Assembly (NCBI GenBank): GCA_022646745.1 | Contig: CP060262.1 | Location: 1,230,001 to 1,262,000, forward strand | From: Planctomycetales bacterium | Lineage (GTDB): Bacteria; 4484-113; JAFGCY01 | DNA length: 32,000 nt | Reading direction: 5' to 3' | Part shown: piece after piece, positions 2,198 to 22,213 of the stretch | How positions within the stretch are numbered: the stretch's first letter is position 1 | Layout: every line of letters begins with the position of its first letter | The notes under the pieces: model-generated | Databases searched by the model: none | What the model was told of the DNA's origin: nothing | What the model saw: the letters and a program-made list of their open reading frames with translations, nothing else | Position numbers and translations under genes: made by a program

Positions 2198-3196
2198 TTA
2201 CTCCTGCTTCACCAGATACTCATCCCCCAGCCACTCGTGCAGTTCATCGCCCAGGCTGCCACTTATGCGTGAAATCAGTTCCTCGCCATGTTCGAGGAAG
2301 TGCGCCTTGTCCGCCTCGCTGACATAGCGCGGGCGATAGTCCGGCTTCAGCAGGCGCTTGGCGCGGGCCAGCAGGATGCCGCTGCCGGTACTGTCGCCGG
2401 AACCGCGCGGAGTGAGGATGTAGGCCTGGAACTCATTCACCATCAGGGTCTCGAAGGCCGGGTCGTAATTCAGGCTGGCCAATAGCGTTGAAAAGGCGCG
2501 ACGCTCGTCGGCACTCAGCCGTTGTTGCCAGAACTCCGTGCAGCGCCTTGCATACTCAGGCTCGGTAAAGAAGATCCCATGCAGCATTTCGTGGTACAGG
2601 GCGCCAGCCTCGTAGCTGCGATCCGCTTTGCCCTGCAGGTTGTTGGCACTGTCGCGCAGCGCAAGCCGCGTGGCAAAGGAGATCACCGCCTGCTCACCGC
2701 TTGCAGCAAACGGCGCGGCATCGCGCGGCAGTTCCTCTCCTTCTGCTGGCAACTGTGCCACCAGCAAGCCCGCCCCGACCAGCACTTCCGCCACACGCTG
2801 CTCCTCGTCATACAAGGGCTCGCCACTCTGCCACAGCGCATTGTAGAAGGCCGCGAGGTCCTCCGTGTCATAGTCATGCGCGCCGAACAGCCCTTCCAGC
2901 GTGGCACCCTGCCCACTGAACCAGGCCTCCAGCTCGGACTGCGTCATGATCCGCCCGCGCGAGGCCGCCATCTCCTGCCACATTGCCATCCGTGAGAATG
3001 CGCGGCTCTGGTAGAGGTAGGTGTCGAAGTGGATCACGTAGACATCGGGGAAGGCATCCCAGCGGTAGAGCGTGAAGGATTCGCGCGGGGCTTCGGAAGC
3101 GATCATCTCCGCGAAGCCGGCCTCGGGGATGGCATGCGCCGGCCGCACTGCCAGCAGGCTGGCAAGCAAGATGCAGGTGATCGCGGCGAGGCGCAT
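2198..3196 (-). CDS. secreted hypothetical protein with HExxH motif (possible zinc metallopeptidase-like)
   Basis: The ORF track gives 2198-3241. The internal Met at 3196 starts a classic Sec signal, MRLAAITCILLASLLAVRPAHA. An HEMLH (HExxH) motif lies in the C-terminal half. The extension upstream of 3196 is just the translation of a heptamer repeat. Confidence 0.6.
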   Translation of the reverse strand: MRLAAITCILLASLLAVRPAHAIPEAGFAEMIASEAPRESFTLYRWDAFPDVYVIHFDTYLYQSRAFSRMAMWQEMAASRGRIMTQSELEAWFSGQGATLEGLFGAHDYDTEDLAAFYNALWQSGEPLYDEEQRVAEVLVGAGLLVAQLPAEGEELPRDAAPFAASGEQAVISFATRLALRDSANNLQGKADRSYEAGALYHEMLHGIFFTEPEYARRCTEFWQQRLSADERRAFSTLLASLNYDPAFETLMVNEFQAYILTPRGSGDSTGSGILLARAKRLLKPDYRPRYVSEADKAHFLEHGEELISRISGSLGDELHEWLGDEYLVKQE

Positions 3197-3207
3197 TGGA
3201 TTAGAAT

Positions 3208-3248
3208 AGCAATGAGCAATGAAGACTGAGCAATGAGTCAATGCAATG
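3208..3248. repeat. imperfect heptanucleotide tandem repeat (AGCAATG)n, about 6 units
   Basis: Read directly as agcaatg agcaatg aagactg agcaatg agtcaat gcaatg. Two inverted copies (cattgct) lie at 3277-3283 and 3298-3304. Confidence 0.7.
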
Positions 3249-3296: not shown

Positions 3297-4571
3297 TCAT
3301 TGCTCAAACACCCTCAGTATTTCCCCCATTGAATAGATGCTGCCACAAATTGCCAGCGGGGCCTCCGCACTGGCGGACTTGAGCGCATGCTCGACGGATT
3401 CAATCCAGTGGGTGCGGTTGTCAGGCGGGTCCAGTTCGGTGATGTGCCCGACCTCATACTCCTGCGGCACCTGGGACAGCTCAAAGCCTTCCGGCAGTGA
3501 GAGCGGGATGCTGAGCTGGGTGGCTGCATCCGCGATCCGGCCCACCGGGCAGGGACGCAGTACCGGAATCTCCACGGGGGTCAGGCTGGCCATCACCGGC
3601 CTGAGGATCTCCAGCATTTCAAGCGGCTCACGCGTTGCCTGGCAGGAGAAGATGAATGGCAGCGGGCCGGGATAGTTTGCCGCGATATGCCTTGCCAGCA
3701 TCTGCAGCGCGTCGGCATTGTGCGCACTGTCAAGCAGCACCGGATGTCCGTGCAGCTCGCGGCACTCCAGCCGCCCGGGATGGCGCATCGTACGCACGGC
3801 CTCGAACAGCTCCTCCTCGTCCAGTCCGAAGCCCAGCGCTTCCAGCTCATGGTTGACAGCGAGCATCAGGGCCGGCAGCAGGTCGGCAGACTGCTGTTCC
3901 TTCGGCAGCGCGATGTAGCGCGCCTCAACGGCGTGCGCATGCATCCTGGCAACCGGTTCGTAGCGGCTGTAAGCTGTCTCATTGCCAGCCAGGCAGGGCC
4001 CGAGGATGAAGGGCCGTCGCGCTCGCGCGATGCCGACCTTGTCAGCGGCGATCAGCTCCACCGTGTCACCGAGGATCGCCTGGTGATCCAGGCCGACATG
4101 CGTCAGCACCGAAACCTGCGGGTCCAGCAGGTTGCAGGCATCATGCGTGCCACCCAGCCCGACCTCCCAGATCGCGATTTCGCAGCCCTCGCGCTCGAAC
4201 AGCAGCGCGCCGAGCAGCACATTGGCCTCGAAGAAGCTGATCTCCTCGCCGCTCTGCTCAATCAGGTCGCAGGCTGCGTTGGCAGCCCAGCTGAACTGCT
4301 CCTCGGAAATGTCTGTATCATCGATGCGCCAGCGCTCACGGATGCTGACGAGGTGCGGCTTGACGAAGGCGGCGGTCCTCCAGCGCGTTGACAGCGCGCG
4401 GCTCAGGGCGCAGACGAGGCTGCCCTTGCCATTGGTCCCGCCGACCAGCACGACCGGGCAGCTGCGCTCCGGATTGCCGGCCAGTGCCAGCACGCGTTCC
4501 AGCCGGTCACGGCCGAATACCATCCGCCCGGGCCCGAGCTCATACAGCCTGCGCAGTGCCTGTTCGTACAC
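3297..4571 (-). CDS. folC: folylpolyglutamate synthase / dihydrofolate synthase (Mur-ligase family)
   Basis: 424-aa ORF with the Mur-ligase P-loop VVLVGGTNGKGS about 45 aa from the N-terminus and the C-terminal DSAHNADA motif. GTG start at 4569-4571. Confidence 0.85.
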   Translation of the reverse strand: MYEQALRRLYELGPGRMVFGRDRLERVLALAGNPERSCPVVLVGGTNGKGSLVCALSRALSTRWRTAAFVKPHLVSIRERWRIDDTDISEEQFSWAANAACDLIEQSGEEISFFEANVLLGALLFEREGCEIAIWEVGLGGTHDACNLLDPQVSVLTHVGLDHQAILGDTVELIAADKVGIARARRPFILGPCLAGNETAYSRYEPVARMHAHAVEARYIALPKEQQSADLLPALMLAVNHELEALGFGLDEEELFEAVRTMRHPGRLECRELHGHPVLLDSAHNADALQMLARHIAANYPGPLPFIFSCQATREPLEMLEILRPVMASLTPVEIPVLRPCPVGRIADAATQLSIPLSLPEGFELSQVPQEYEVGHITELDPPDNRTHWIESVEHALKSASAEAPLAICGSIYSMGEILRVFEQ

Positions 4572-4593: not shown

Positions 4594-6801
4594 CTACTCA
4601 AACGGTATGTTGCCACGGATCGCATAGACCTTCTGCGTGATCTTGTCAGCCAGCACGAATACCGGCTGCTCATTGAGCACCTTCAGGTCGGCCTTCTCGT
4701 AGGCGTCTATCTCGCCGATCTTCATCAGCTGGGTTTCCCACTCGCCGCTGCTGCGCAGCACTGAGCAGTACCAGTCCCGTGTGCGGTCCCCCATGTAGAC
4801 GCAGACCACGCCACCACGGAAGGGCTCCATGCGAACGTTGCGCCCGGTGCGGTAGCCCTCCTGCTTGTAGATAAGCTGACTGTCCCAGTTCTCGCCGCCA
4901 TTGTCCTCGAGGAAGTACAGCGCTTCCTCTGCCCCGTGATAGCCCGGTGTCACCCATTTATCACCCATCCGCTCAAGGTCGGTGTAGATCCCGAAGGTGG
5001 TACCGGGCGGGTTGTCAGTCACCTGAGTGAAGCCGTCTGACTCATTCCAGATGTAGAGCTGGCGGTCAACATAGTCAAAGCAGCTGCCCCAGAGTTTGCC
5101 ATCCAGCACCTCCAGGTCGAACTCAATCGGGATCGTCTCCGGCTGGTGGCGGATCTCCTGCTTGACCCAGGGCTTGTCCGCACCGAAGGCGCGGGTGTAC
5201 AGGCAGTACTGCTGGAGTTCCCAGTCATTGCCGGTTGCGTTATAGCCATTGTCACTGATAGCAACCTGGCCATAGAGGCCGGCGCTGGCAACGTCGAAAA
5301 TCCCATATGCCGTGCCAATGTCAATCCGTTCCACCGTCCAGCCCACGCCCGGTGCCCCGATCGCGGCATAGTAGTCGTTGCCTGCCACTGTGACTGATGC
5401 AATCAGGTAGGTCCCACCGGCATAGTCAATGTCCAGCACACCCGTAAATCCCCCGCCCGGCAGTTCTGCGCCGGTATTTGGATCCTGAAATGTCTCGGTC
5501 ATGTCAAGATCCGTGCTTTCAACGGTCCAGGGCTGGCCCTGGCCGCTGTTGAGAGCGACCTGCACTACGTGGTCCTTGATGTACGAGGCGCAGATCTGGC
5601 CATCGGCGATCACACAGCTGACCGGCTCCTTGCCGTCGCCAACCTCCTCCGCATCGAACCACTCCCATTCGTCTCCTGTCAGGCAGGGCAATGCATCCGT
5701 CATCTGGCCCTGCAGGCCGCTGCTGTCACGCGCGCACATCCGGATGAAGTACAGCCGCCCGACCTCCAGCCCGCTGTACTTGTACTGCCGCGCTCCACCC
5801 TGCGGGATGGTCTTCTTCTCGGTCGGCGGTTCCAGGTTGAAGTCGGCGGAGTGAGACAGGTAGACGTTCCAGCTCTGGGGACTCGTGCCTTCCCAGTCCC
5901 AGGCGAACTCAATGAAGTCGTCACCGCTGTCAACCAGGCGCAGGTTGGTCGGGGCCGGCAGCTCGCCCGCCGGCACGTAGACGCTGATGTATCCGCTGTA
6001 TGCACTTTCAATGGCGGCAAGCGCGGTCACGCGGTAGAAGTACATCTCACCGTTGACGAGGAAAGAGTCTGAGTATTCACTGCTCTCCAGCGGCTCTGCA
6101 TTGAGTTTCAGCTGGTTCTCGAACTTCTTGTCATAGTCACGGTATACGTTGTAGCCAGTTGCGCCGGGCACATCCTGCCAGTCCAGGCTGACGAGGCCGG
6201 GGCTGCCTGTGCCTGATAATCCGGAGGGTGCCTCGAGATCAGTGGCACCCAGCCTGCCGAAGGTCAGCGAGTAGAGCTTGGCATTGCCATCCGCATGGCG
6301 CAGTACTGCGACATAGCAGATCCCGCTGTCGGAGTAGTACTTGCCTCCGGCGGGGAATTCGTAGCTGAAGTCATCCTTGCCGGCGTCCACGAAGTCCCAG
6401 TGCCCGGTGCTGAAGTCCGCGACGGCAAGGTAGATCCGGCAGGGCTGGCCAGGCTCCGTGTAGAACGATGCGAACACACTGCCGGGAGTTACCTGTCCGA
6501 AACCGCCCAGCGCATAGATCCCCCATGCCTGCTCCGGCCCATTCAGCTCAAGTGTGCTGCCAATTTCCACAGCATTGTCACTCTTCTCACTCCACTGGTG
6601 CCCCTGCAGGGTGACGGTGTCATTGCTGATGAAGCGCTCGACCTGCTGATCAAGTGATGAAAGGGCTGGCAGAGTATCCGTATCCGCCAATGCCTGCGGG
6701 TAGGACACAGGGCTGCCGGGATCATATGTGGTCTGCAGCCCATCGGAGCCGCCGCAAGAGGCACAGAGCAACACAATTACCAATACCAGTTTTCTCAGCA
6801 T
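4594..6801 (-). CDS. large surface lipoprotein, paralog 1 of 4 (N-terminal module, two FN3-like modules, C-terminal propeller-like module)
   Basis: The ORF track gives 4594-6813. The start is placed at MLRKLVLVIVLLCASCGG (signal plus Cys lipobox), preceded by ttgggggtttgcATG. FN3-like signatures: LDWQDVPGATGYNVYR...YFYRVTA and APTNLR...FAWDWEG...LYFIRM. Confidence 0.8.
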   Translation of the reverse strand: MLRKLVLVIVLLCASCGGSDGLQTTYDPGSPVSYPQALADTDTLPALSSLDQQVERFISNDTVTLQGHQWSEKSDNAVEIGSTLELNGPEQAWGIYALGGFGQVTPGSVFASFYTEPGQPCRIYLAVADFSTGHWDFVDAGKDDFSYEFPAGGKYYSDSGICYVAVLRHADGNAKLYSLTFGRLGATDLEAPSGLSGTGSPGLVSLDWQDVPGATGYNVYRDYDKKFENQLKLNAEPLESSEYSDSFLVNGEMYFYRVTALAAIESAYSGYISVYVPAGELPAPTNLRLVDSGDDFIEFAWDWEGTSPQSWNVYLSHSADFNLEPPTEKKTIPQGGARQYKYSGLEVGRLYFIRMCARDSSGLQGQMTDALPCLTGDEWEWFDAEEVGDGKEPVSCVIADGQICASYIKDHVVQVALNSGQGQPWTVESTDLDMTETFQDPNTGAELPGGGFTGVLDIDYAGGTYLIASVTVAGNDYYAAIGAPGVGWTVERIDIGTAYGIFDVASAGLYGQVAISDNGYNATGNDWELQQYCLYTRAFGADKPWVKQEIRHQPETIPIEFDLEVLDGKLWGSCFDYVDRQLYIWNESDGFTQVTDNPPGTTFGIYTDLERMGDKWVTPGYHGAEEALYFLEDNGGENWDSQLIYKQEGYRTGRNVRMEPFRGGVVCVYMGDRTRDWYCSVLRSSGEWETQLMKIGEIDAYEKADLKVLNEQPVFVLADKITQKVYAIRGNIPFE

Positions 6802-6875
6802 GCAAACCCCCAAATCTGCTGAATGCAGTTCAAACCTGGATCACTGATCGCGCGAAGCGCTACTATCCCTCCAAC

Positions 6876-9086
6876 TCATGCCTGCGGGATGTTGCCACGG
6901 ATCGCATAGACCTTCTTCGTGATCCTGTCAGCCACGATCAGCACCGGCTTGTCATTCAGGATCTTCAGGTCCGCGCGTTCGTAGGCATCGATCTCCCCGA
7001 TCTTCATCAGCTGTGTTTCCCATTCACCGTTGCCACGCATCACGGAGCAGTACCAGTCGTGGATCCCGCCGCCCATGTAGACGCAGACCAGGCCGTCGCG
7101 GAAGCGCTCCATCCGGCAGCCCTTGCCGGTCTTGTAGTCCTCGCTGTCGGTGACAAGGTATTGGTCCCAGTATTCATTTCCCTTGTCCTCCATCAGCACC
7201 AGGTTGCGGTTGTAACCGTCGTAGGCAATGATTCCCCAGTGGTCCCCGAGCCATTCCATGTCGCTGTACTGCAGGCCGTAGCTCCAGCCCTCCGGGTTGT
7301 CAGTGACCTGCGTGAACTCGTCGAGGTCCTCGCTCCACAGCAGCAGCTGGCCCGCATCGTAGTCAAATGTGCTGGCGAACAGGCTGCCGTCCCGGGCCTC
7401 GAAGTCCGCCTCACAGGGCCAGCCCTCCGGCAGGCCGAAGAAGTCGTGCTTCTGCCAGGGCTTGTCCTTGCCGAATGGCCGGGTGTACCACTTCTGCCCA
7501 CCACCGTAGAAGTCCACGCCGCTGGCGTTGTAGCCGTTGTCGGAAATGGCAACCTGGCAGAACAGCCCGGCGGCCGGCTGCTGGAAGCCCCCGCCGGTAC
7601 CCTCGTCAATCAGTTCCACATCCCAGCCTACCTCGGGTGCGCCGATCGCGGCATAGTAGTCCAGGCTCTGGGCCGTGACTGATGTGATCAGGTAAGTGCC
7701 GTCGCGGTAGTCAATGTCGAGGTGCTTCTCGAAACCGCCGGCGGAGAAGTATTCGCCGACGTAGTCATTCCAGTACAGGATGCTTTCATCAAGGGCCGTG
7801 CTTTCCACCACCCAGGGTTCGCCCACGCCGTTGTTGCGGGCCACATGCACCACATTGTCAAGGAAATAAGCCGCACAGATCTGGTCGTCCGCGATCACGG
7901 CGGAAATCGGCTCAGTGCCGTCGCCAATCTCCTCCACGTCGTACCATTCCCACTGGTCGCCGGTCAGGCAGGGCAGCGCATCCGTCATGCGGCCCAGCGC
8001 GCCGTTGCTGTCCTTGGCGGCCACGCGCACGAAGTACAGCCGGCCAGGGTCCAGGTTGCTGAACTTGTACTGGCGTGCGCCACCCTGCGGGATGTTCTTC
8101 TTGATGGTCGGCGGCTCGAGGTTGAAGTCCGGCGCGTTGGCAAGGTAGACCACCCAGCTGTTTGGGCTTGGCCCTTCCCAGTCCCAGGCGATTTCAACGT
8201 GGAAGTCCCCGACATCGATGACACGCAAGTTCTGTGGCGCCGGCAGGTCGGCCGCCGGGACATACACGTTCACTGCATTGCTGTAAGCGGATTCGATCGC
8301 GGCAATGGATGTAACGCGGTAGAAGTACATCTCGCCGTTCACCAGCCAGCTGTCCTCATAGCCTGCGCTTGCCAGCGGCTCTTCATTGAGCTTGACCTGG
8401 TCAGCGAACTTGCGGTCGTAGGCGCGATAGACGTTGTAGCCGACGGCATTGTCAACCGGTTGCCAGCTCAGGTGCACGATGCCCGGATCCGCGCTGGCCA
8501 CCAGGTTGGCAGGTGGCTCGAGGTCAGTATCGCCCAGCCTGCCGATTGTCAGCGAATACAGCTTGGCCGCGCCCTCACCGTGACGCAGCACCGTCAAATA
8601 ACAGACGCCGGAGTCGGAGTAGTACTTGCCACCTGCCGGGAACTGGAAACTGAAGTCATCCTTGCCGGCATCGGCGAATACCCAGTGTCCAGTGTTGAAA
8701 TCAGCCACCGCCAGGTAGATGTGGCAGGCTTCGTCCGGGTCGGTGTAAAACGAGGCGAATGCACTGCCGGGAGTGACCTGGCCGAAGCCGCCAAGCGCGT
8801 AGATGCCCCAGGCCGTGTCGCCGCCGTTCAGCTCCAGTGTGGTGCCGACTTCCTCAGCAGTTTCACTCTTTTCCGTCCAGTCGCGGCCCAGCAGCTTGAC
8901 TGAGTCATCACTGATGCTGCGCTCCACGGAATCCGCAAGCACTGACAATGCGGGAAGTGAATCCGCAGCAGCCAGCTGCTGCTGGACTTCCACGGGATCA
9001 GCAGGATCCTGCACGGAGGCGGGTCCCCCGGATCCCGCGCAGGATGCACACAGCAGCGCTGCTGCCAGTATCAGTTTCCTCAACAT
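6876..9086 (-). CDS. large surface lipoprotein, paralog 2 of 4
   Basis: The ORF track gives 6876-9236. The start is placed at the internal Met (9086) of MLRKLILAAALLCASCAGSGG, preceded by the same cttgggggtttgcATG context as paralog 1. Collinear with paralogs 1 and 3. Confidence 0.8.
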   Translation of the reverse strand: MLRKLILAAALLCASCAGSGGPASVQDPADPVEVQQQLAAADSLPALSVLADSVERSISDDSVKLLGRDWTEKSETAEEVGTTLELNGGDTAWGIYALGGFGQVTPGSAFASFYTDPDEACHIYLAVADFNTGHWVFADAGKDDFSFQFPAGGKYYSDSGVCYLTVLRHGEGAAKLYSLTIGRLGDTDLEPPANLVASADPGIVHLSWQPVDNAVGYNVYRAYDRKFADQVKLNEEPLASAGYEDSWLVNGEMYFYRVTSIAAIESAYSNAVNVYVPAADLPAPQNLRVIDVGDFHVEIAWDWEGPSPNSWVVYLANAPDFNLEPPTIKKNIPQGGARQYKFSNLDPGRLYFVRVAAKDSNGALGRMTDALPCLTGDQWEWYDVEEIGDGTEPISAVIADDQICAAYFLDNVVHVARNNGVGEPWVVESTALDESILYWNDYVGEYFSAGGFEKHLDIDYRDGTYLITSVTAQSLDYYAAIGAPEVGWDVELIDEGTGGGFQQPAAGLFCQVAISDNGYNASGVDFYGGGQKWYTRPFGKDKPWQKHDFFGLPEGWPCEADFEARDGSLFASTFDYDAGQLLLWSEDLDEFTQVTDNPEGWSYGLQYSDMEWLGDHWGIIAYDGYNRNLVLMEDKGNEYWDQYLVTDSEDYKTGKGCRMERFRDGLVCVYMGGGIHDWYCSVMRGNGEWETQLMKIGEIDAYERADLKILNDKPVLIVADRITKKVYAIRGNIPQA

Positions 9087-9156
9087 GCAAACCCCCAAGT
9101 CTGCCGGTTGCGTATCCGTCCAGTCTCCAGCCGTGGAAGGCCCAGCCCGGCCATTC

Positions 9157-11382
9157 CTACTCAGGTGGGATGTTGCCACGGATGGCGTAGACCTTCTTCG
9201 TGATCCTGTCAGCCACGATGAACACGGGCTTGTCATCCAGGATCTTCAGGTCGGCGCGCTCATAGGCATCAATCTCACCGATCTTCATCAGCTGCGTTTC
9301 CCATTCGCCGTTGCCACGCAGCACGGAGCAGTACCAGTCCCTGATACCGCCCCCCATGTAGACACAGACCAGCCCGTCGCGGAAAGGTTCCATCCGGCAA
9401 CCCTTGCCGGTCTTGTAGTCATCGGTGTCCGTCACGAGGTACTGGTCCCATGTCGGGTTGCCCTTGTCCTCCAACAGCATCAGGTCGCGGTTGTAGCCAT
9501 CATAGGCGATCAGTCCCCAGTGGTCGCCGAGCCATTCCAGGTCGGTGAACAGCAGTCCGTAGGTCCAGCCCTCCGGGTTGTCAGTGACCTGCGTGAATTC
9601 ATCAAGGTCCTCGGACCAGAGGTAGAGCTCACGATCTATGAAGTCAAAGGAGCTGGCGAACAGGCTGCCACTGCGGACTTCGAAATCCATTTCCGCCGGC
9701 CAGCTTTCCGGGATGGTAAAGAAGTCGTGCTTCTGCCAGGGCTTGTCCTTGCCATAGGGCCTGGTGTACCACTTCAGGCCGCCGCCGTAGAAATCCACGC
9801 CGCTGGCGTTGTAACCGTTGTCAGAGATCGCCACGGAGCAGTAGAGTCCCGCGGTCGGTGCCTGGAACCCCCCGCCGGTGCCCTCATCGATCAGCTCGAC
9901 ATCCCAGCCGGCCTCGGGTGCACCGATTGCTGCGTAGAAGTCGTGGCTCAGTGCGGTGACTGAAGTGATAAGGTAGGTGCCATCCTTGTAGTCAACGTCC
10001 AGGTGCTGCTCGAAGCCCCCAGCGCTGATTTCCTTGCCAACGTAACTGTTCCAGTAGGTGATGCTCTTGTCGAGGTCGGTGCCCTCCACTACCCAGGGCT
10101 CGCCGACGCCGTTGTTGCGCGCCACATGCACGACGTTGTCAAGCATGTATGCGGCGCAGATCTTGTCGTCGGCAATCACGGCGGCAATCGGTTCCTTGCC
10201 GTCGCCGATTTCCTCGATGTCGTACCATTCCCACTGGTCGCCGGTCAGGCAGGGCAGGGCATCCGTCATGCGGCCGAGTGCCCCATTGCTGTCCTTGGCA
10301 GCCAGCCGGACGAAATACAGGCGACCGGGGTCCAGCCCGCTGAACTTGTACTTGCGGGTTCCGCCCTGCGGGATGTTCTTCTTGATGGTCGGCGGCTCGA
10401 GGTTGAAATCCGGCGCGTTGGCCATGTAAACTTCCCAGCCGTTGGGGCTCGGTCCTTCCCAGTCCCAGGCGATCTCGAAGTCGAAGTCACCGACTGACAG
10501 CACTCGTAAATTCTGTGGAGCCGGCAGGTCAGCCGCCGGTACATATACATTCACGGCATTGCTGTAAATGGATTCGATCGCGGCGACGGATGTCACCCGG
10601 TAGAAGTACATCTCACCGCTGACCAGCCAGTCATCCTCGTAGCCAGCTTCCGTGATCGGCTCGGCATTGAGCTTGACCTGGTCAGTGAACTTGCGGTCGT
10701 AGGCCCGGTAGACGTTGTAACCGACGGCATTGCCGACTGCTTGCCAGCCAAGGTGCACGATGCCGGGATCCGCACTGGCCGAGAGGTCCGCCGGGGCCTC
10801 GAGGTTGGTGTCCCCGATGCGACCGATCGTCAGCGAGTACAGCTTGGCATCACCTTCGCCGACGCGCAGCACTGCGATATAGCAGTTGCCTGTCTCCGAA
10901 TGGTACAGGCCATTGGCGGGGAACACGTAACTGAAGTCATCCTTGCCGGCATCCGCGAACACCCAGTGGCCGGTATTGAAATCTGCAACGGCAATGTACA
11001 GCCGGCAGGGGGAATCCTCGTCCGTCCAGAAGCTGGCATAGACACTGCCGGCCTCAACTCCGCCGAAGCCGCCCAGCGCATAGATTCCCCAGGTGTTGTC
11101 CGGGCCATTGAGCTCAAGCGTGGTGCCGATTTCCTCAGCGGTCTCACTCTTGTCAATCCAGTCGCGGCCAAGCAGCTTGATCGAATCGTCGCTCAGGCTG
11201 CGTTCGACGGCGTCCAGGCCATCCGGGAACTGCATTTCCTGCGGTGCAGCAATCTCCGGTCCAGGCTGTAGTGCTGCCAGTGGAGAATTGTCATCCGCCT
11301 GGTTGCCATCCTGCACGACCGCTGTCCGCGAGCCGCAGCTGCACAAAAGCAATGCCAGCATCAGTATGCAAATCCTGCGCAT
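9157..11382 (-). CDS. large surface lipoprotein, paralog 3 of 4
   Basis: The ORF track gives 9157-11454. The start is placed at MRRICILMLALLLCSCGS (11382), preceded by caggaggtacggacATG. Collinear with paralog 2, with most residues identical by eye. Confidence 0.8.
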   Translation of the reverse strand: MRRICILMLALLLCSCGSRTAVVQDGNQADDNSPLAALQPGPEIAAPQEMQFPDGLDAVERSLSDDSIKLLGRDWIDKSETAEEIGTTLELNGPDNTWGIYALGGFGGVEAGSVYASFWTDEDSPCRLYIAVADFNTGHWVFADAGKDDFSYVFPANGLYHSETGNCYIAVLRVGEGDAKLYSLTIGRIGDTNLEAPADLSASADPGIVHLGWQAVGNAVGYNVYRAYDRKFTDQVKLNAEPITEAGYEDDWLVSGEMYFYRVTSVAAIESIYSNAVNVYVPAADLPAPQNLRVLSVGDFDFEIAWDWEGPSPNGWEVYMANAPDFNLEPPTIKKNIPQGGTRKYKFSGLDPGRLYFVRLAAKDSNGALGRMTDALPCLTGDQWEWYDIEEIGDGKEPIAAVIADDKICAAYMLDNVVHVARNNGVGEPWVVEGTDLDKSITYWNSYVGKEISAGGFEQHLDVDYKDGTYLITSVTALSHDFYAAIGAPEAGWDVELIDEGTGGGFQAPTAGLYCSVAISDNGYNASGVDFYGGGLKWYTRPYGKDKPWQKHDFFTIPESWPAEMDFEVRSGSLFASSFDFIDRELYLWSEDLDEFTQVTDNPEGWTYGLLFTDLEWLGDHWGLIAYDGYNRDLMLLEDKGNPTWDQYLVTDTDDYKTGKGCRMEPFRDGLVCVYMGGGIRDWYCSVLRGNGEWETQLMKIGEIDAYERADLKILDDKPVFIVADRITKKVYAIRGNIPPE

Positions 11383-11490
11383 GTCCGTACCTCCTGCGCC
11401 GCCCGCAAGCCTGGCAGGCGCCTGTCCCGGAGGCATCCTGCCTCCAACTTCCATTCCCTGGATCCGCGGATCCTCCAGCCGGTTTATTCC

Positions 11491-13704
11491 CTACAGCTCT
11501 CCGAATGGCGGGATCACTCCCGTCACGCACATGATCTTGTCCTTGTTGGGGGATGTGCTCTCGGTCTCCTCCACGAGGAAGTAGGGCACATCGTTGACGA
11601 CGACCAGCTCGGCACCGGTGGCGGGCTTGACGATCGGCATCAGCATCACCTGCTGGAACCACTGGCTGCCGTCATAAACCGAGCAGTACCAGTTGGTGCT
11701 GTCATCAAGGTAGACGCAGATCAGGCCAGTGCCGCGGAAGGGCTCAAGCCTGGCGTGCCCGCCATATCCGCCTGTTGCCAGGTCCTCGGAGTTCCAGCTG
11801 CCGCCGGACTGGCGCAGCAGGTAGAGGTCATCGTTCGTCACATCGTAGCTGGTGCTGACCCAGCCGCCCGGTGTCATCACCAGGTCGGTGTACAGGCCAT
11901 TGTTGTCACCCATGTTGTCGGAGATCACGGCGGGGGCATACGGAGCCGGGCCCTTGCCGAACAGCAGTTCATGGATCTCATAGTCGAAGTACATGTATTC
12001 TGGATTGTTGCCATTCGCCTTCATCTCGAGCTGCACCGGGAAGCCGCTGTCGTTCAGTGTGCGGACGCTGGTACTGGTCCAGCTGCCCCCGGCGATCGGC
12101 TTCTCACGCATGTAGGTCAGCTTGGCGTAGTAGTCCTTGTCGATGATGTAGTAGCTGTCGTCCGTGATTGCCACCGACAGGTGGTTGCCTGCGCTCGGCA
12201 CGTCGAACTGGCCGACCTTCGTGCCGTCCGCAACGAACTCCTTGGTCCAGCCATTGCCCGGGTCGCCATAACTGGCATACAGGTCCTGGTTGAGGAAGTC
12301 AAATGCACCAACCAGGAACTTACCGTTGCGCTCGGAGATGTCCAGGTAGTTGTCAAAGCTCTCTGTGCCGAACTCCAGCCCGCAGTCGCCAACTGACCAG
12401 CTGCTGCCGGTGCCCTGGGCGAAGGCTACACTGCCCGACGGGGTGCCACCAGCATTCGCACCGAGCCAGATGACACTGGCCGTGTTGCCGGTGGCCACTG
12501 CGCGGATCGGCTCGGAGCCGTTGCCAATCGGGTGCACCTGGGTCCAGTCCCAGAACTCACCGGTGATCGCCGGCAGGTCATCCGTCATCCGGCCGCGGGA
12601 GTTGTTCAGGCTGACGCCGACAATGCGGAAGTAGTACAGCGTGTTGGTCTGCAGGTTGTTGAACTGCGCACTGCGGGCCCAGCTCTGGGAGCGGTAGCGG
12701 ATCTCGATCTCTGGTTCGAGGTTGAAGTCCTTCTCGGCCTTCAGGTAGACATAGAATCCGTTGGCAGGCTCAGGTCCGAGTTCCTCGATGTTCCAGTCCC
12801 AGCCAATCGTGACTGAATCAGGCGTCGCTTCGTCAACACGCGGGTTCTGCGGCGCCGGCATGTCGATCGTCGGTGCGAACAGGTCGATGTAGTCACTCGG
12901 GCCGGATTCCGTTGCGCCGACTGCTGTGACGAAGAAGTAGTAGATAACGCCCTTGAGGATCGGGGTGTAATCGAAGTCCGGGCCTGTCACTGGCTCTGTG
13001 TTCAGCTTCAGCGGGTCACGCAGGTCCGACCAGCGGGAGAAGTAGACGTTGTAGCTCTGAGCACCGGGCACCGGGTCCCACTGCAGGCCGATGTTCTCGG
13101 GAGTCTGCTCGTCACTGCGCAGGTTCTTCGGAGCAGTGATGGTCACATCGCCGACTCGGTTGAAGGTCAGCTTCTGCACGTCTATCGTAGCCGGACCGGT
13201 ACGCAGCAGTGCAATGTGCACGTTGCCGTTCGGGCTGGCGTAATGTGCTGGAGTAACCGGTGTGAAGGTATAGCTTCCATTCTCAGTGGTGCTGAACCAT
13301 TCCCAGCGGCCCTTGTTGTAGTTGGCCATGCCGATGTACAGCACAGTGCCGGCCCCGGTCAGGATGTTGTATTCAGCCTTGATGGAACCGAGGTCCAGTG
13401 TGTCGAAGCTGCTCAGGCTGTAGATCGCCCAGGGGGCCGTGCCATCATTGAGCTTGCAGACCGTGGAGACTGCATGCGCGCCTCCACCGGCTGAGCTGAA
13501 CTCATTGCCCAGCAGCTCGATTGAGTCATCACTGGCCTTGCGGAAGTTGTCCGCCGGTGGCCAGCTGAGGTCTCCCGCTTCGGCCGGCAGGATGTCCACA
13601 GTGCCTGTATCACCTACCCTTGGATCGCCTGAGCCGCAGGAGACAAGCGCGAGTGCAAGTGTGACAAGCATCACGAAGCGACAGTTCTGGAGCAGAATCT
13701 TCAT
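11491..13704 (-). CDS. large surface lipoprotein, divergent paralog 4 of 4
   Basis: 737 aa. The signal is MKILLQNCRFVMLVTLALALVSCGSG (canonical lipobox LVSC), with SD aaagga 6 nt upstream. It has the same module order as the other three, with an FN3-like LQWDPVPGAQSYNVYF...YYFFVTA, but a much more diverged sequence. Confidence 0.8.
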   Translation of the reverse strand: MKILLQNCRFVMLVTLALALVSCGSGDPRVGDTGTVDILPAEAGDLSWPPADNFRKASDDSIELLGNEFSSAGGGAHAVSTVCKLNDGTAPWAIYSLSSFDTLDLGSIKAEYNILTGAGTVLYIGMANYNKGRWEWFSTTENGSYTFTPVTPAHYASPNGNVHIALLRTGPATIDVQKLTFNRVGDVTITAPKNLRSDEQTPENIGLQWDPVPGAQSYNVYFSRWSDLRDPLKLNTEPVTGPDFDYTPILKGVIYYFFVTAVGATESGPSDYIDLFAPTIDMPAPQNPRVDEATPDSVTIGWDWNIEELGPEPANGFYVYLKAEKDFNLEPEIEIRYRSQSWARSAQFNNLQTNTLYYFRIVGVSLNNSRGRMTDDLPAITGEFWDWTQVHPIGNGSEPIRAVATGNTASVIWLGANAGGTPSGSVAFAQGTGSSWSVGDCGLEFGTESFDNYLDISERNGKFLVGAFDFLNQDLYASYGDPGNGWTKEFVADGTKVGQFDVPSAGNHLSVAITDDSYYIIDKDYYAKLTYMREKPIAGGSWTSTSVRTLNDSGFPVQLEMKANGNNPEYMYFDYEIHELLFGKGPAPYAPAVISDNMGDNNGLYTDLVMTPGGWVSTSYDVTNDDLYLLRQSGGSWNSEDLATGGYGGHARLEPFRGTGLICVYLDDSTNWYCSVYDGSQWFQQVMLMPIVKPATGAELVVVNDVPYFLVEETESTSPNKDKIMCVTGVIPPFGEL

Positions 13705-13727
13705 CCGAAGTCCTTTGGTAACAGTCG

Positions 13728-13736
13728 TGTTATAAT
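13728..13736 (+). promoter_or_regulatory. extended -10 (TGtTATAAT) for tRNA-Gln; the same AT box read on the minus strand (TATAAC, 13734-13729) is a candidate -10 for the paralog-4 operon
   Basis: cgTGtTATAATctctctccccaa, then the tRNA 5' end at 13749. On the minus strand, gatTATAAC is followed by a 24-nt leader with SD aaagga and then ATG at 13704. Confidence 0.45.
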
Positions 13737-13748
13737 CTCTCTCCCCAA

Positions 13749-13822
13749 TGGGGAATCGTCTAACGGTAGGACGCCTGACTCTGGATCAGGTAGTCTAGGT
13801 TCGAATCCTAGTTCCCCAGCCA
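13749..13822 (+). tRNA. tRNA-Gln (anticodon CUG), CCA encoded
   Basis: Hand-folded 74-nt cloverleaf. Acceptor stem TGGGGAA/TTCCCCA; anticodon stem CCTGA/TCAGG; loop CTCTGGA (anticodon CTG); T-arm CTAGG-TTCGAAT-CCTAG; discriminator G plus CCA. Confidence 0.9.
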
Positions 13823-14006: not shown

Positions 14007-14639
14007 ATGGATTTGCAGATCAATTCAGCTGCCCGCAGGCAGGATCGTCGCCGGATGGTGCTGGACACGGCTGTGCTGATGATTGAGGAATCCGGTTTCC
14101 AGGGGCTTTCCCTGCGCAAGCTGGCCCAGAAGGTTGATTCAACCACACAGCTTGTTTACACCCTGTTCGGCGGCAAGCTAGGCCTGTTCCAGGAGCTGTA
14201 CCGCGATGGCTACCGGATCATGACGGAGATGTTTCAGGCGGCACCCAAATCGCAGAACAGCCTGATGTACCTTAGTACGCTTTGCTGGAAGTACCGCGAA
14301 TTCGCATTGAACCATCCGGTGCTGTTCTCGCTGATGTTCAGCCGCCCCGTGCCGGAGTTCATCCCGCCGGATGTCGGCCTGCTGCGCCAGCAGGAGCCGG
14401 TGCGGATCATGCTGGAGGCTGTCCGCACGGCACAGCGGGGAGGTATGTTCCAGGGGATCACCGCCGAGCATGCCGTTGAGCACTTGCTGTTGACGGTGCA
14501 TGGCGCAGTGCAGATGGAACTCGGAGGCTTCTACGGTGACCAGATGGAAGCCAGTGAAAGCTTCGGCCGTGCCCTGCGGATTGTGGCCAATGGAATGAAC
14601 GCGTCCAGTCCGGCAAGCACACGGCGAGCCAACAGCTGA
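14007..14639 (+). CDS. TetR/AcrR-family transcriptional regulator
   Basis: 210 aa. The N-terminal HTH region, RRMVLDTAVLMIEESGFQGLSLRKLAQKVDSTTQLVYTLFGGK, is typical TetR_N. Confidence 0.85.
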   Translation: MDLQINSAARRQDRRRMVLDTAVLMIEESGFQGLSLRKLAQKVDSTTQLVYTLFGGKLGLFQELYRDGYRIMTEMFQAAPKSQNSLMYLSTLCWKYREFALNHPVLFSLMFSRPVPEFIPPDVGLLRQQEPVRIMLEAVRTAQRGGMFQGITAEHAVEHLLLTVHGAVQMELGGFYGDQMEASESFGRALRIVANGMNASSPASTRRANS

Positions 14640-14847: not shown

Positions 14848-17800
14848 GTGAAACGCAAGACCAGCCGCAAGCTCATCTCCCTTCCAACCCTGATCGCAGT
14901 GTGCAGCCTGTTGTGCTGTGCCTGCGGATCCGGTTCCCGCCTGGATGTCAGTGCCGGCCCCTTTTCCTACCGGCGGATTTCCACCGCGATTGATTCCGAT
15001 CCAGCCTCTGGCACCCTTTCCCTGAAGCAGGAGAATGCTGGAGACGGCCTGCTGCTCAGCCTGATGGTGGAAGATGCACAGGACCTGCGCAGTCTGGCGG
15101 TTGAAATCTGCTTTGATGCAGAGGCCTGGCAGCTGGCGGATGCCGCAGCGAGCGAGCTGCTCGGTTCCGAACCTCTGCTGCTGCAAAGCTCGATGCTGGT
15201 TTCGAATGGAACGCTGGCCCACGGCCAGGTGTTGATTGATGCGGGCCAGCAGGCCGGATTCACCGGTTCCGGCTGCCTGGCGCGCTTCCACTTCACGCCT
15301 GGCGCCGGAGATGTCCCGCGCGAAACATCGGCAGTCTCGAATGCGCTGCCGCTGCCACAGTGGGATGAAGGGACATGGGAACTGAACTGGCCCTATTCAA
15401 ACACCGGTGACTACGACCAAAACAGTGAGGTCAACATTGCCGACCTGACCCCGATCGGGATCCACTTCGGCGAGGTCGTCAGCGACCCGCTCAGCAGCCA
15501 GGCGATCATTGACGGGGATGCCAATGGCGAGATCAACATCGCGGACATCACCCCGATCGGAGTGAACTACGGCCGCAGCCTGTCCGCCTACCGCTTGTGG
15601 GAGCTGGCCAGCCCGCTGGACTGGCTCGGGCCGGCTGATACCGTCCCGCTGGCCGACATCGTGTTTGCATCCGCCACTGGCCTGCCCGCACAGGACCTGC
15701 TGCAGTTCACATATAAGTATGCGGCGGATCCCGGTTATCGCTGGCTACGCCTCGCCCCGGTCAGTGGAGAGGACACCGGCCCGGTAACGGATTACATCTT
15801 CACCTATCCATCCCTGCAGCCACTGCTTTCCGTGGCTGACGGCACTGGACTTACCGGCAATGGCTCTGAAGCGGACCCATTCTCGCTGGAGGTGCCAGCC
15901 AGTGTCCCGCTGAAGCTGCTGCTGCAGGATGACACGGACGTGACGGCGGATGCGCTCAGCAGCTTTGCTGTCAGTGGCCCGGCCGGCGGCAGCATCAGTG
16001 GTTCCAGCCTCGAGCTGGATGCCTCAAGTGCCGGTGACTACCTTGTTACGGCGACATACGACGGCGTGCCTTCCGATCCCTTCGCGCTGTATTTCCATGT
16101 CAACGAACCACCTGAGGCAATTCTGGTTGCTAATCCAACCAGTGGCAATGTCCCGTTCACGGTGGAACTGGATGCCAGCCAGAGCAGCGACCCGGATGGT
16201 GAGATCGTGCTCGCGGAATGGGACTTTGACAACGATGGCACATTCGACCGTGAGACCGGTGATCTGCTGACAACCCTGCGACGGTATGACACAGAAGGTA
16301 CCTACGAGGCTGTGGTCAGGCTGACGGATGACAAGGGAGCCAGCAGCGTGAGTGACCCGCTGCTGATCACCGTGGAGCCCCCCAACCAACCACCGCAGCC
16401 GGTTGTCAGTGGCAACCCGCTCAGCGGCAATACCCCATTGACGGTGGAGTTTGATGCATCAGCCAGCTCGGACCCGGACGGCAGCATCGAGAGCATCAGC
16501 TGGGACTTTGACAACGACGGAAGCTATGAGCTGCTGGACAGCCAGGACTTCACGCCGCAGCATACATTCGTCGTGCCCGGACAGTATGAAGTGGCGGTGC
16601 GGCTGCGGGATGACGATGGCGCGGTCGCATTCAGCTCACCCCTGTTCATCAACGTGGGTGGCAACTTCCCACCGACAGCCGTGCTGCGCGCCGTGCCGAA
16701 TGCCGGTCCATCGCCACTGCTGGTGCAGCTCGATGCCAGTGAATCAACGGACGGTGACGGCAGCATCGTGCTCGTGGAATGGGATTTCAGCGGTGATGGC
16801 GAATATGACCAGAGCGGTACCCTGTTCGTGGTGAGCAACCTGTACACCGGTGATGGGGTGTTCCATCCGGTGGTGCGCCTGACTGACAACAATGGTGGCG
16901 TGACGGTCAGTGAACCGGCCACCGTCACCGTCGGCGTGGCAGCCGGTTCACCCCCCGTGGCACTGCTCAGCGCACTGCCCCAGTCCGGGCCGGCCCCGCT
17001 TGATGTCACGTTCAGTGGAACAGGCAGTACGGATGCTGATAATGACATCCTCTATGTGGAGTTCGACTTCGAAAATGACGGGACCTGGGACGTGCTGGAT
17101 GATGACGACTTCACGGTCTCACACCGCTATGAATTGGACGGGACCTATGAAGCAGTGCTGCGGGTGACGGACAGCTACGGATTCCGGGATACCAGTGATC
17201 CCGTTGAAATCACAGTCAGCAGCGGTTCTCCTCCCACTGCATTCTTCCAGGCGGCCAGCCTCAGCGGGGTTTCCCCGTTTGACCTGGTGCTGGATGCCTC
17301 TGGCAGCAGCGACCCTGACGGCTCGATCAGCCTGTACGAATGGGACGTGGATGCTGATGGATCCTACGACCTTGCGACAACATCCTCGAGCGCGCAGCTC
17401 AGCCTGGTGACCGAAGGCCAGCGGGACCTGCGCCTGCGGGTGACGGACAGTGACGGCATGTCCGCGACCTTCAGCCGGGAGTTCACGGTTTCCCCGCCGT
17501 CGCTGGGCTGGAATGACTGGAGCACAGGCATCGTGAACCCGCAGAATGCACACCTCCGTGCGGTTGGCGGCAGGCCGGCTGTCGCCTGGCAGTCCAGCGG
17601 GGCCGATCTGTTCTTCAAGCGCAGTGCGGATGTGGACGGGCATAGCTGGCCGGTGACAGGCTCGCTGGTGGACAGTGACCTCACGGGCTATCCCGGAGGC
17701 AGCATCCGATTGGTTGATTTTGCAGTCAGCGGCGGCGTGCCCTTGATGCTTACGCTGAAGGGCACCGCGGCCCAGGCCGACCATGACATGTTCGTCAGCC

Positions 17801-18588
17801 GTGGGCTCAATTCAGACGGCTCATCCTTTGCACTTCCGCTGAAGATCGTGTCCGGTCCGGTCTTCCGCCCGGACCGCGACAACCGTGGTCTGCCCCTGCT
17901 GGCGGAATTCAGCGGCCTGCCCGGTGTTTGCTATGGCTCCGATCAGAGCGGGGGCTGGCACCATATCCGGGCGCTGGACAGCACCGGCAGCAGCTGGCAG
18001 GCCAGCCCGAGTGCCATCAGCGGATCGCAGTCGGCGGCCAGTCCATTCGGAAGCCTGCTGCAGGATCCGTCCGGTGGTGCGCTGCTGTTCTACTTCGACC
18101 AGGACGGCATCATGGCCAACCGCGATCCGGATGGCAATGGCAGCAACTGGAACTTCCGCGAGCAGCTGTTCAGTATTGGAGATGTTGTCCGGATCCAGTC
18201 GATCACCAGTTCCGACAGCGTGCTGCTGCTGTACACCGTCAAGGAAGGAGTGACTGATTACACCCTGTGGGCCAGCCACGCCAGCTCGCCATCATTTGCC
18301 AGCTGGACCGATCCGGCCAGAGTTATTGACATCAATTCTTCAGTGGCTGATGCCCAGCTGCTGCTGGATAACGGCAAGCCTGTGGTGCTGCTCAGTGGCA
18401 ACCCCGGTGGCGATGGTGGGGTGCACTATCTTCGCAGCCACGATGCGCGCGGCAGTGGCTGGAGCGAGACTCGTCGGATCAGCAGCCAGACGGCCGGGGA
18501 ATTGCGCGCTGCCACGATTGTCAATGGGCGGCTGGCTGCCATCCATCTGCGCAGTAATGGTGCCCTCAGGCTGCTGCAGAGGGAATAG
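14848..18588 (+). CDS. giant surface lipoprotein: cohesin-like module, dockerin, five PKD domains, C-terminal propeller-like module
   Basis: 1246 aa. Signal MKRKTSRKLISLPTLIAVCSLLCCACGS. Two dockerin Ca-loop repeats lie at about 15406-15573: DYDQNSEVNIADL and DGDANGEINIADI, with D/N at positions 1, 3, 5 and 12. Five PKD repeats lie at about 16108-17493, each with a DAS.S.DPDG...WDFDNDG-like core. The C-terminal ~360 aa carry recurrent D-x-x-G-x-x-W motifs. The cohesin-like call for aa ~55-150 is weaker. Confidence 0.8.
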   Translation: MKRKTSRKLISLPTLIAVCSLLCCACGSGSRLDVSAGPFSYRRISTAIDSDPASGTLSLKQENAGDGLLLSLMVEDAQDLRSLAVEICFDAEAWQLADAAASELLGSEPLLLQSSMLVSNGTLAHGQVLIDAGQQAGFTGSGCLARFHFTPGAGDVPRETSAVSNALPLPQWDEGTWELNWPYSNTGDYDQNSEVNIADLTPIGIHFGEVVSDPLSSQAIIDGDANGEINIADITPIGVNYGRSLSAYRLWELASPLDWLGPADTVPLADIVFASATGLPAQDLLQFTYKYAADPGYRWLRLAPVSGEDTGPVTDYIFTYPSLQPLLSVADGTGLTGNGSEADPFSLEVPASVPLKLLLQDDTDVTADALSSFAVSGPAGGSISGSSLELDASSAGDYLVTATYDGVPSDPFALYFHVNEPPEAILVANPTSGNVPFTVELDASQSSDPDGEIVLAEWDFDNDGTFDRETGDLLTTLRRYDTEGTYEAVVRLTDDKGASSVSDPLLITVEPPNQPPQPVVSGNPLSGNTPLTVEFDASASSDPDGSIESISWDFDNDGSYELLDSQDFTPQHTFVVPGQYEVAVRLRDDDGAVAFSSPLFINVGGNFPPTAVLRAVPNAGPSPLLVQLDASESTDGDGSIVLVEWDFSGDGEYDQSGTLFVVSNLYTGDGVFHPVVRLTDNNGGVTVSEPATVTVGVAAGSPPVALLSALPQSGPAPLDVTFSGTGSTDADNDILYVEFDFENDGTWDVLDDDDFTVSHRYELDGTYEAVLRVTDSYGFRDTSDPVEITVSSGSPPTAFFQAASLSGVSPFDLVLDASGSSDPDGSISLYEWDVDADGSYDLATTSSSAQLSLVTEGQRDLRLRVTDSDGMSATFSREFTVSPPSLGWNDWSTGIVNPQNAHLRAVGGRPAVAWQSSGADLFFKRSADVDGHSWPVTGSLVDSDLTGYPGGSIRLVDFAVSGGVPLMLTLKGTAAQADHDMFVSRGLNSDGSSFALPLKIVSGPVFRPDRDNRGLPLLAEFSGLPGVCYGSDQSGGWHHIRALDSTGSSWQASPSAISGSQSAASPFGSLLQDPSGGALLFYFDQDGIMANRDPDGNGSNWNFREQLFSIGDVVRIQSITSSDSVLLLYTVKEGVTDYTLWASHASSPSFASWTDPARVIDINSSVADAQLLLDNGKPVVLLSGNPGGDGGVHYLRSHDARGSGWSETRRISSQTAGELRAATIVNGRLAAIHLRSNGALRLLQRE

Positions 18589-18734
18589 GACTCACTCCAA
18601 ATCATTTCCAGTAGAGGAACCGATTGATGCCTGCCGGTGCAGTGGCGACAGGATGGATTTCGCCTAGGAATGTTTTGGAAAAAAGATCAATCATTTAGTT
18701 TACTCCTGCTTTCCCTGGAATATTTATTCAAAAT

Positions 18735-18763
18735 TTGAATTTTTGGCGGAAGCACCCTAGAAT
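18735..18763 (+). promoter_or_regulatory. near-consensus sigma70-type promoter TTGAAT-N17-TAGAAT upstream of the tripled cassette
   Basis: TTGAAT at 18735-18740, a 17-nt spacer, then TAGAAT at 18758-18763, within an AT-rich stretch. It implies a leader of roughly 87 nt before the ATG at 18857. Confidence 0.55.
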
Positions 18764-18856
18764 CTGCATAGGAGCAAAACCTTGCGCTCCCCTCGTGATT
18801 CATCCCCGCATTCCCTTTCGCGCGGATGAACACGGACATAGATCGGAGGAAGAACA

Positions 18857-21460: not shown

Positions 21461-21807
21461 TGCCTTGGAAATTATACCTGAATTTAACCTTTCTCCGGCT
21501 GCCCCTTGCTGCCGGATTCCGCCTCTCCGAAAATTAAATTCCGAAGCTACATCAAAATATATCATTTCTTGCCAGTCATTTCCACATCAAACCACGCGCA
21601 TGTACATGAAATGTTAACTGGAATTAACCTGGGGCCAGTTCTTGCGAAGTTTCGCCCGTGCTCCGGTGCAGTTTCGCACCGGATGTCACTTTGCCAGACC
21701 ACTCCAAGCATTTGACCTTTGCTGATATTTACGATGTCCCGCCAGGCAACAATTCCGCTGCAATTCAGATATAATTGCGCTGCATTCATTTGCGGAGGAA
21801 GAACAGA

Positions 21808-22164: not shown

Positions 22165-22213
22165 TTGCCGAATTCCCGGTCCACTGAAACCCGGACAGTC
22201 GGGGGAGGATCAA

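Follow-up and report, generated by a model that had tools for sequence, protein, structure and literature searches.

What four tandem lipoprotein genes do, and why they lie between a tRNA gene and folC, is the question raised by positions 4594 to 13704 (minus strand) of a 32,000-nucleotide (nt) stretch of contig CP060262.1 from a Planctomycetales bacterium (the window). Four intact, co-directional paralogs of 735 to 741 amino acids (aa), here named P1 to P4, fill this interval. The reading that we favor, and to which we give about an even chance, is that they are non-enzymatic, lipid-anchored, stalked ligand-binding envelope proteins encoded in an operon-like folC cassette. An earlier note on this DNA had described a lipoprotein family next to a tRNA gene and folC; we present here a computational analysis of the array, its relatives, and its surroundings.

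An intact array in a conserved cassette

The coordinates of P1 to P4 (Table 1) assume ATG starts at the conserved MLRK, MRR, or MKIL N-termini. The intergenic gaps are 74, 70, and 108 nt, in agreement with the earlier note, which had given four co-directional minus-strand genes with gaps of 70 to 108 nt. BLASTP identity falls from 78% (P2-P3) through 63% (P1-P2) and 58% (P1-P3) to 30 to 32% (P4 against P1 to P3), so the graded divergence described there stands. Its statement that P4 is barely alignable outside motifs was too strong, since P4 aligns end to end with the other paralogs (E ~1e-104).

Tandem repeats of 2.2 kb at 58 to 78% protein identity could in principle mislead assemblers, and the array might then be an assembly artefact, or else several degenerating duplicates of a single gene. 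The copies, however, share ~76% nucleotide identity or less, too low for collapse or duplication in assembly. Contig JAGRNS010000015.1 of GCA_020440665.1 is 100% identical to the window, an independent metagenome contig (L002) is 99.99% identical over P4-P3-P2, and a sister metagenome-assembled genome (MAG; L004) has the same gene order plus one additional copy. All four frames are open, and dN/dS in their folded domains is 0.04 to 0.30 in all copies, which indicates purifying selection. Because the same order is found in two independent assemblies and the genes are under purifying selection, mis-assembly and gene decay are refuted, and we leave them practically no probability.

Synteny was compared in ten loci beyond the window that had enough flank; L006 was left out because its contig is cut inside the family gene preceding folC. 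Close relatives are L003/L007, L004, L005, and L008, and distant relatives are L009 (GCA_020849855.1), L010, L011, L012/L013, and L015, whose lipoproteins are 23 to 30% identical to those of the window and whose folC products are 51 to 57% identical. At least two tandem family genes followed by folC on the same strand were found in every one of the ten, and in L010 and L012 the folC call begins 31 and 25 nt, respectively, before the preceding gene ends. A tRNA-Gln(CUG) gene accompanies the block upstream in the window and nine of the ten other loci. ARAGORN places it head to head with the first copy in the window, L003, L004, L005, L008, L009, L010, and L015. In L011 (2721-8788) it sits between the two family genes, so one copy has moved or been duplicated across the tRNA; in L012 its position would lie beyond the contig end, and the first open reading frame (ORF) there may be a truncated third family copy. 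Flanks outside the block differ among loci (LeuRS, MotAB, a sigma factor, and a type II secretion ATPase). Thus tRNA-Gln, at least two family lipoproteins, and folC form a conserved cassette, of which the four copies here are an expansion. Strict scan patterns matched 4 of 185,579 species-representative genomes, a lower bound.

The head-to-head spacer between the first copy and the tRNA is 44 to 90 nt and is kept in distant relatives. Since P4 and tRNA-Gln are only 44 nt apart in the window (13704-13749), their promoters must lie against or inside each other's gene. An inverted repeat was sought in the P4-TetR interval and none was found, and scans for promoters and terminators within and near the array gave nothing above chance. 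Spacing and synteny suggest that the lipoproteins would be co-transcribed with folC.

The earlier note was right about the position of the array between folC and tRNA-Gln; incidental or island-type placement does not fit a block kept in distant relatives. A tRNA-linked genomic island was considered and rejected: no integrase was found, the 3' end of tRNA-Gln occurs once in the window and has no direct repeat, GC content is 0.58 to 0.62 throughout the array, like the flanks and with no compositional shift, the array occupies the 5' flank of the tRNA gene, and the adjacency is ancient and conserved.

Neighboring genes are less constant. The 347-aa secreted protein follows folC in L003 to L008 and in the distant L011 (40% identity); it does not do so in L009, L010, or L012, and it has no Pfam or NCBIfam family. 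It is a facultative member of the cassette. The TetR gene and the 1246-aa PKD protein gene are syntenic in L003, L004, L005, and L008 and are not beside the cassette in L010 to L012 or L015, while L009 has only an N-terminal homolog of the PKD protein, ~4 kb away. Both are close-lineage neighbors and not part of the cassette core, and the co-variation with the PKD protein that the earlier note wished to see checked holds only within the close lineage. Homology of the paralog propellers to the C-terminus of the PKD protein was also rejected (hhalign probability 0.4%; nothing by BLAST). By eye, the PKD protein has a duplicated dockerin-like calcium-loop motif at residues ~188-240 (DYDQNSEVNIADLTPIG and DGDANGEINIADITPIG) and SxDxGxxW-like motifs in its last 370 residues, neither of which Pfam recognises.

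Table 1. Coordinates of the array, the domains of P2, and neighboring features
Sequence	Feature	Position	Strand	Description	Basis
Window	Secreted protein	2198..3241	-	347 aa; downstream of folC; signal-peptide-like N-terminus	
Window	folC	3297..4571	-	Folylpolyglutamate/dihydrofolate synthase family	NCBIfam TIGR01499, 212.9 bits (cut-off 162.65)
Window	P1, type B lipoprotein	4594..6801	-	735 aa; last copy; ends 22 nt upstream of folC	ORF and translation
Window	P2, type B	6876..9086	-	736 aa	ORF and translation
Window	P2 seven-bladed propeller	6879-7970	-		AlphaFold2 domain map
Window	P2 FN3b	7971-8246	-		AlphaFold2 domain map
Window	P2 FN3a	8247-8516	-		AlphaFold2 domain map
Window	P2 N-module beta-sandwich	8517-8912	-		AlphaFold2 domain map
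Window	P2 signal, lipobox, linker	8913-9086	-		AlphaFold2 domain map
Window	P3, type B	9157..11382	-	741 aa; sister of P2	
Window	P4, type A	11491..13704	-	737 aa; first copy, most divergent	
Window	tRNA-Gln (anticodon CTG)	13749..13822	+	Head to head with P4; 44-nt spacer	ARAGORN
Window	TetR regulator	14007-14639	+		Pfam
Window	PKD lipoprotein	14848-18588	+	1246 aa; five PKD domains	Pfam
L003	Large base-module PKD/PQQ lipoprotein	16064-19174			
L006	Large base-module PKD/PQQ lipoprotein	5800-10236			
L001	Large base-module PKD/PQQ lipoprotein	21477-22226		Just left of window position 108	

Module architecture of the lipoproteins

The module order is the same in every paralog: lipoprotein signal, disordered linker, beta-sandwich (the N-module), two FN3 domains, and seven-bladed beta-propeller. 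Conservation was read from a 46-member sample of the family that aligns across the whole architecture. The Cys at the end of the signal peptide is 97% conserved and stands in a lipobox-like context in most members, so the family has the N-terminal signal peptide ending in a lipobox Cys that marks signal peptidase II substrates. P3 has LCSC and P4 has LVSC, P1 and P2 have a less canonical CAS-C, and in most relatives L-[AS]-G-C precedes a Gly/Ser-rich linker.

A full-length AlphaFold2 model of P2, built from a 14-sequence alignment (mean predicted local distance difference test score [pLDDT], 77.6), has residues 1-59 disordered, the beta-sandwich at ~60-185, and FN3 domains at ~195-275 and 284-366. 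The FN3 domains are the only parts of the paralogs that Pfam and PDB profile searches recognise. PF00041 (fn3) scores are 39.0 bits for P2, 34.1 for P3, and 44.9 for P4 against a cut-off of 25, and 23.5 bits for P1, slightly under it; an fn3 match is present in 45 of the 46 members. The PDB profile search matched both domains at residues 193-274 and 284-365. The module order given in the earlier note (lipobox, N-terminal module, two FN3 modules, C-terminal propeller) is borne out by the conserved Cys, the model, and the Pfam and PDB profiles.

The N-module is a beta-sandwich of 11 predicted strands in the P2 model. It has no usable Pfam or PDB sequence match, as the earlier note had found when it could assign the module to no family; weak matches to Kelch repeats and hydroxylamine oxidoreductase (E >=0.02) were set aside as chance. 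A word-indexed search with the N-module alignment returned no matches though members score >130 bits locally, for which we assume an index limit, and a second such search with a distant-member query was swamped by FN3 proteins. The N-module profile also matches other lipoproteins at their N-termini (E 1e-7 to 1e-16). Several of them have PKD repeats, and two of these have a PQQ-type propeller as well. In all of them it lies directly after the lipobox and linker. Because it stays beside the membrane anchor while the distal parts change, the N-module is probably a base, docking, or sorting element. In the close lineage, a large lipoprotein encoded two or three genes beyond folC combines this N-terminal base module with PKD repeats and a PQQ-type propeller, and one gene for a base-module lipoprotein is found just past the left end of the window.

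A whole-protein Foldseek search against the PDB gave only FN3 chains and FN3-plus-propeller receptors (ROS1, Sevenless), and nothing specific on either novel module. No match of the whole architecture to a characterised enzyme family was found, so that neither of the two conditions by which the earlier note would have been refuted, such a match or a mis-assembly, holds.

The propeller head: binding or catalysis

Residues 379-731 of P2 form 29 strands in the full-length model, which make seven four-stranded blades and a closing strand. Modelled alone, the propeller has a pLDDT of 83 and a predicted template-modeling (TM) score of 0.87, and the "propeller-like" C-terminal module of the earlier note is thus predicted to be a true seven-bladed beta-propeller. 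It has no Pfam, NCBIfam, or PDB sequence match. Foldseek against the PDB gave only generic structural matches (TM score <=0.61, identity <=12%); the best were LGI1 EPTP, Sec12, and the CV39L and AofleA lectins, that is, binding propellers and lectins as much as enzymes. Further matches were to PL42 lyase, trypanosomal sialidases, a GH43 enzyme, and a Bacteroides auxiliary nutrient-binding protein.

An exhaustive search of 1.84 billion representative proteins with the propeller profile gave 338 matches at E <=1e-3 and 41 at E <=1e-30. Nearly all of the latter are proteins of 650 to 850 aa with the propeller at the C-terminus. The view that this is a real, lineage-restricted lipoprotein family expanded in this genome is supported. 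Remoter matches, with E values of 1e-21 to 1e-15, belong to large multidomain secreted proteins with Pfam BNR_2, PKD, dockerin, or type IX secretion sorting domains. In one of these (P0058), the propeller-matched stretch (629-854) overlaps BNR_2 (PF13088) at 615-790.

This remote link raises the alternative that the propeller is an enzyme on a stalk, a sialidase or BNR-type glycosidase or a PL42-type lyase, with the paralogs as isoenzymes for different glycans. Each blade has a g-G-x-W turn that resembles a worn Asp-box, and the trypanosomal sialidases, the PL42 rhamnose-glucuronate lyase, and the GH43 enzyme are Foldseek matches with TM scores of 0.39 to 0.58, although these are no better than the matches to non-enzymatic propellers. 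None of the 46 members, however, matches BNR_2 or any other propeller or hydrolase Pfam model even at E <=1, and the modelled propeller has seven blades against six in sialidases. The SxDxGxTW of Asp-boxes is reduced to g-G-x-W. Propeller positions that are at least 75% conserved are Trp, Gly, Pro, Asp, Tyr, Leu, Ala, and Val only, which are structural residues; no Arg, Glu, or His reaches this level among the 46 members. The conserved Tyr residues are Y407 and Y465 only, and they have neither a conserved Glu partner nor an Arg triad, so the catalytic set of sialidases (Arg triad and Tyr/Glu nucleophile pair) is not conserved. An enzymatic role is therefore unlikely, and we give it a low probability. 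Because of the remote BNR_2 link, the g-G-x-W turns, and the lack of conserved catalytic residues, the propeller is probably related, at great distance, to Asp-box propellers and serves for binding and not for catalysis.

Among binding propellers, the seven- and six-bladed lectins CV39L (of the PLL family), AofleA, and AAL (the last two fucose lectins) are among the best structural matches (TM score 0.48 to 0.58), and the one conserved Trp per blade of the array proteins recalls lectin repeats. The lectins, in contrast, are soluble, lack an anchor or stalk, and are only 10 to 12% identical to the array propellers; the Trp residues of the array lie in Asp-box-like turns, a kind of turn that is structural in known propellers, and no repeated sugar-site motif was identified.

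The heads carry a net charge of -26 to -40 (isoelectric point [pI] ~4.2). This acidity was rejected as a clue to the ligand, since neighboring cytoplasmic and secreted proteins are acidic too. The proteins of the window (1-32000) are generally acidic, with a pI of ~5.1 to 5.2 for the cytoplasmic FolC and Cys/Met enzyme and 4.1 to 4.6 for secreted proteins, which fits the saline habitat of the source MAGs (activated sludge, Hong Kong) (PMC8495973). Other MAGs with the family come from wastewater or sediment metagenomes. Between the P2 and P1 propellers, identity is 53% in loops against 62% in strands, so that loops diverge only slightly more, with a few hypervariable ones among them.

Copy number, envelope position, and possible roles

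The number of family copies per locus is two in six lineages, three in L015, four in the window, and five in L004, whose proteins are 97 to 99% identical to those of the window, yet whose copy number differs. A neighbor-joining bootstrap tree sets type A (P4 and its first-position orthologs in L003, L005, L004, and L008) apart from type B, to which P1 to P3 belong. P1 clusters with the copies nearest folC in two-copy relatives and is orthologous to the copy at that place in L003, L005, and L004, and P2 and P3 form a clade (bootstrap 100) that is sister to a copy from the relative Ww346, which places their duplication after the split from that relative. In the same tree P1 has the fifth L004 copy as its sister. 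Because that copy's dS of ~1.06 far predates the strain split (dS 0.07 to 0.20), the window strain most likely lost this copy. A chimeric P1 as the scar of such a loss was rejected, since P1 is orthologous to the L004 P1 along its whole length (dN/dS 0.07).

The N-modules of P1 and the extra L004 copy share 88 to 93% nucleotide identity against ~70% elsewhere, and orthologs differ sharply in short stretches of the first FN3 domain. These tracts point to gene conversion, and the array has evolved by tandem duplication (birth), loss, and local gene conversion. In distant lineages, tandem copies cluster by lineage and not by position (bootstrap 81 to 100), a pattern that suggests recurrent duplication or an old pair in concerted evolution; at least two copies are kept either way. 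The linker is under far weaker constraint than the folded domains, and its dN/dS reaches ~0.9 to 1.0 in between-species ortholog comparisons. Identity to the relative AC1.30 is 61 to 66% for the lipoproteins against 89% for folC, and the lipoproteins evolve at about the rate of the extracellular PKD protein.

In the arrangement that we favor, an acylated Cys would be followed by a flexible linker of ~40 residues and a membrane-proximal beta-sandwich base common to other lipoproteins of the lineage, two FN3 domains would serve as a rigid spacer, and the acidic seven-bladed propeller would be the distal binding head. The proteins would be made, together with FolC, from an ancient operon-like cassette of divergent tRNA-Gln, at least two paralogous lipoproteins, and folC, in which lineages retain two or more copies and type B has grown to three here. 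The heads may recognize different but related ligands or partners, because diversification by duplication, loss, and conversion under purifying selection fits such a role. A FadL-type porin encoded in the window indicates a diderm envelope. We infer outer-membrane anchoring with probable surface exposure. Exposure is favored because the lipoproteins evolve as fast as the PKD protein and carry domain types common in extracellular proteins. The array may be a surface, adhesion, or substrate-capture system, as the earlier note proposed, and its proteins would bind rather than catalyze.

Several points weigh against it. The catalytic constellation is judged absent from a 46-sequence alignment and not from a ligand-bound structure, and the operon status of the array and folC is read from spacing and synteny alone. 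Lipoproteins as long as these could just as well face the periplasm. No transporter (TonB-dependent receptor or ABC system) adjoins the array to take over a captured ligand. Each genome has one locus, set among housekeeping genes and apparently present throughout the lineage, which suits core envelope machinery better than an accessory adhesion or capture system.

The last point leads to a serious but clearly less likely alternative, in which the family is a periplasm-facing core envelope factor, anchored in the outer membrane, with an LpoA/LpoB-like inward reach or a BamB-like propeller, and takes part in building the wall or outer membrane or in division. BamB offers an example of a propeller lipoprotein of the outer membrane, and Escherichia coli has the envelope gene dedD after folC; on this view the folC linkage would serve co-expression in a similar way. 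One conserved locus per genome lies between tRNA-Gln and folC in every relative examined, a further secreted protein follows folC in several lineages, and a linker, three Ig-like domains, and a propeller could span much of the periplasm, as judged from the model. Like BamB, LpoA, and LpoB, the array proteins would be core-genome outer-membrane lipoproteins; BamB shares the propeller, and LpoA and LpoB reach their partners with elongated or disordered stalks. BamB, however, has eight blades and no FN3 stalk and is outside the top 50 structural matches. BamB, LpoA, and LpoB are single-copy, whereas the array family has two to five copies, varying even between strains with nearly identical proteins, which is unusual for core machinery. 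FN3 domains, and the PKD domains of the other N-module lipoproteins, are, moreover, of kinds mostly found in extracellular proteins in bacteria.

SusE/SusF-type proteins and BT_3476 share with the stalked lipoproteins an N-terminal lipid anchor, Ig-like spacers, and a distal head that is a propeller or resembles a carbohydrate-binding module. BT_3476 (PDB 3tc9, "auxiliary nutrient binding protein") is a weak Foldseek match at rank 28 (TM score 0.43, root-mean-square deviation 15.6). Unlike these proteins, which belong to another lineage (Bacteroidota), the array has no SusC/SusD pair or glycan-utilisation locus, and neither SusC/SusD pairs nor glycoside hydrolases were found in the window or related loci.

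A closer counterpart is BtuG, a Bacteroides surface lipoprotein with a seven-bladed propeller and several paralogs that binds vitamin B12 and is non-catalytic (PMC10404256). Like the array proteins as we read them, BtuG has a lipid anchor, a seven-bladed propeller that binds and does not catalyze, an acidic face for binding, and more than one paralog in a genome (PMC10404256). In BtuG, however, a linker joins the anchor to the propeller, and only the array proteins have the base module and FN3 stalk. The two have no sequence similarity, with no PDB sequence match, and BtuG is outside the top 50 Foldseek matches. BtuG is also encoded with, and caps, a TonB-dependent transporter; no TonB-dependent receptor was found either in the window or next to the cassette at any of the loci.

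BtuG is nevertheless the precedent for another unlikely alternative, micronutrient capture coupled to folC, in which a folate- or pterin-type cofactor or a related scarce metabolite would be taken by the propellers at the surface and, once imported, trapped by FolC through polyglutamylation. Salvage of intact folate requires folylpolyglutamate synthase activity (PMC1971073), and the lipoprotein-folC linkage outlives divergence to 23 to 30% identity while other flanks change, with overlapping calls in two lineages. The lack of an outer-membrane transporter beside the array and the absence of BtuG from the top 50 structural matches tell against this account, and the very acidic heads fit cations better than anionic folates, although the local proteome is acidic overall. 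Other bacteria also keep folC beside unrelated envelope genes. Slightly less probable still is the fuller proposal, by analogy, that the cassette is a functional unit in which an obligate set of at least two surface propellers would capture such a cofactor or metabolite for FolC to trap by polyglutamylation, as a folate-side counterpart of BtuG-mediated B12 capture that an uncultured lineage would have made from two domains not described before; the conserved linkage is its only ground.

Downstream of the PKD gene, 18857-19195 and 19874-20203 encode two paralogous lipoproteins of ~110 aa (44% identical, E 1e-32) with a conserved GxSTMGFVHFDDExVD C-terminal tail. The same tandem pair is present in L003 and L008, and searches gave no family assignment. 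Positions 23145-24890 encode a secreted 581-aa protein in which PD40 (TolB-like) beta-propeller repeats are fused to a cyclophilin-type peptidyl-prolyl isomerase.

Bacteria repeatedly use stalked propeller lipoproteins to capture nutrients or partners at the envelope, and to our knowledge nearly all that has been learned of them comes from Bacteroidota and Proteobacteria. The array proteins, which come from uncultured bacteria of wastewater and sediment, are of this known kind. What is new is two domains without a family and a deep linkage to folC and tRNA-Gln. Both domains, the base module common to several architectures and the divergent seven-bladed propeller with only a remote BNR_2-type link, lie beyond the sequence models of Pfam, NCBIfam, and the PDB. 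At least two tandem copies are apparently required, and the family has stayed linked to folC and tRNA-Gln where nearly all other synteny has been lost. If that linkage is functional, it would represent an unrecognised route that joins capture at the envelope to folate metabolism; a purely regulatory linkage would still leave the array as a clean natural case in which birth-and-death evolution and gene conversion shape a pair of core envelope genes.

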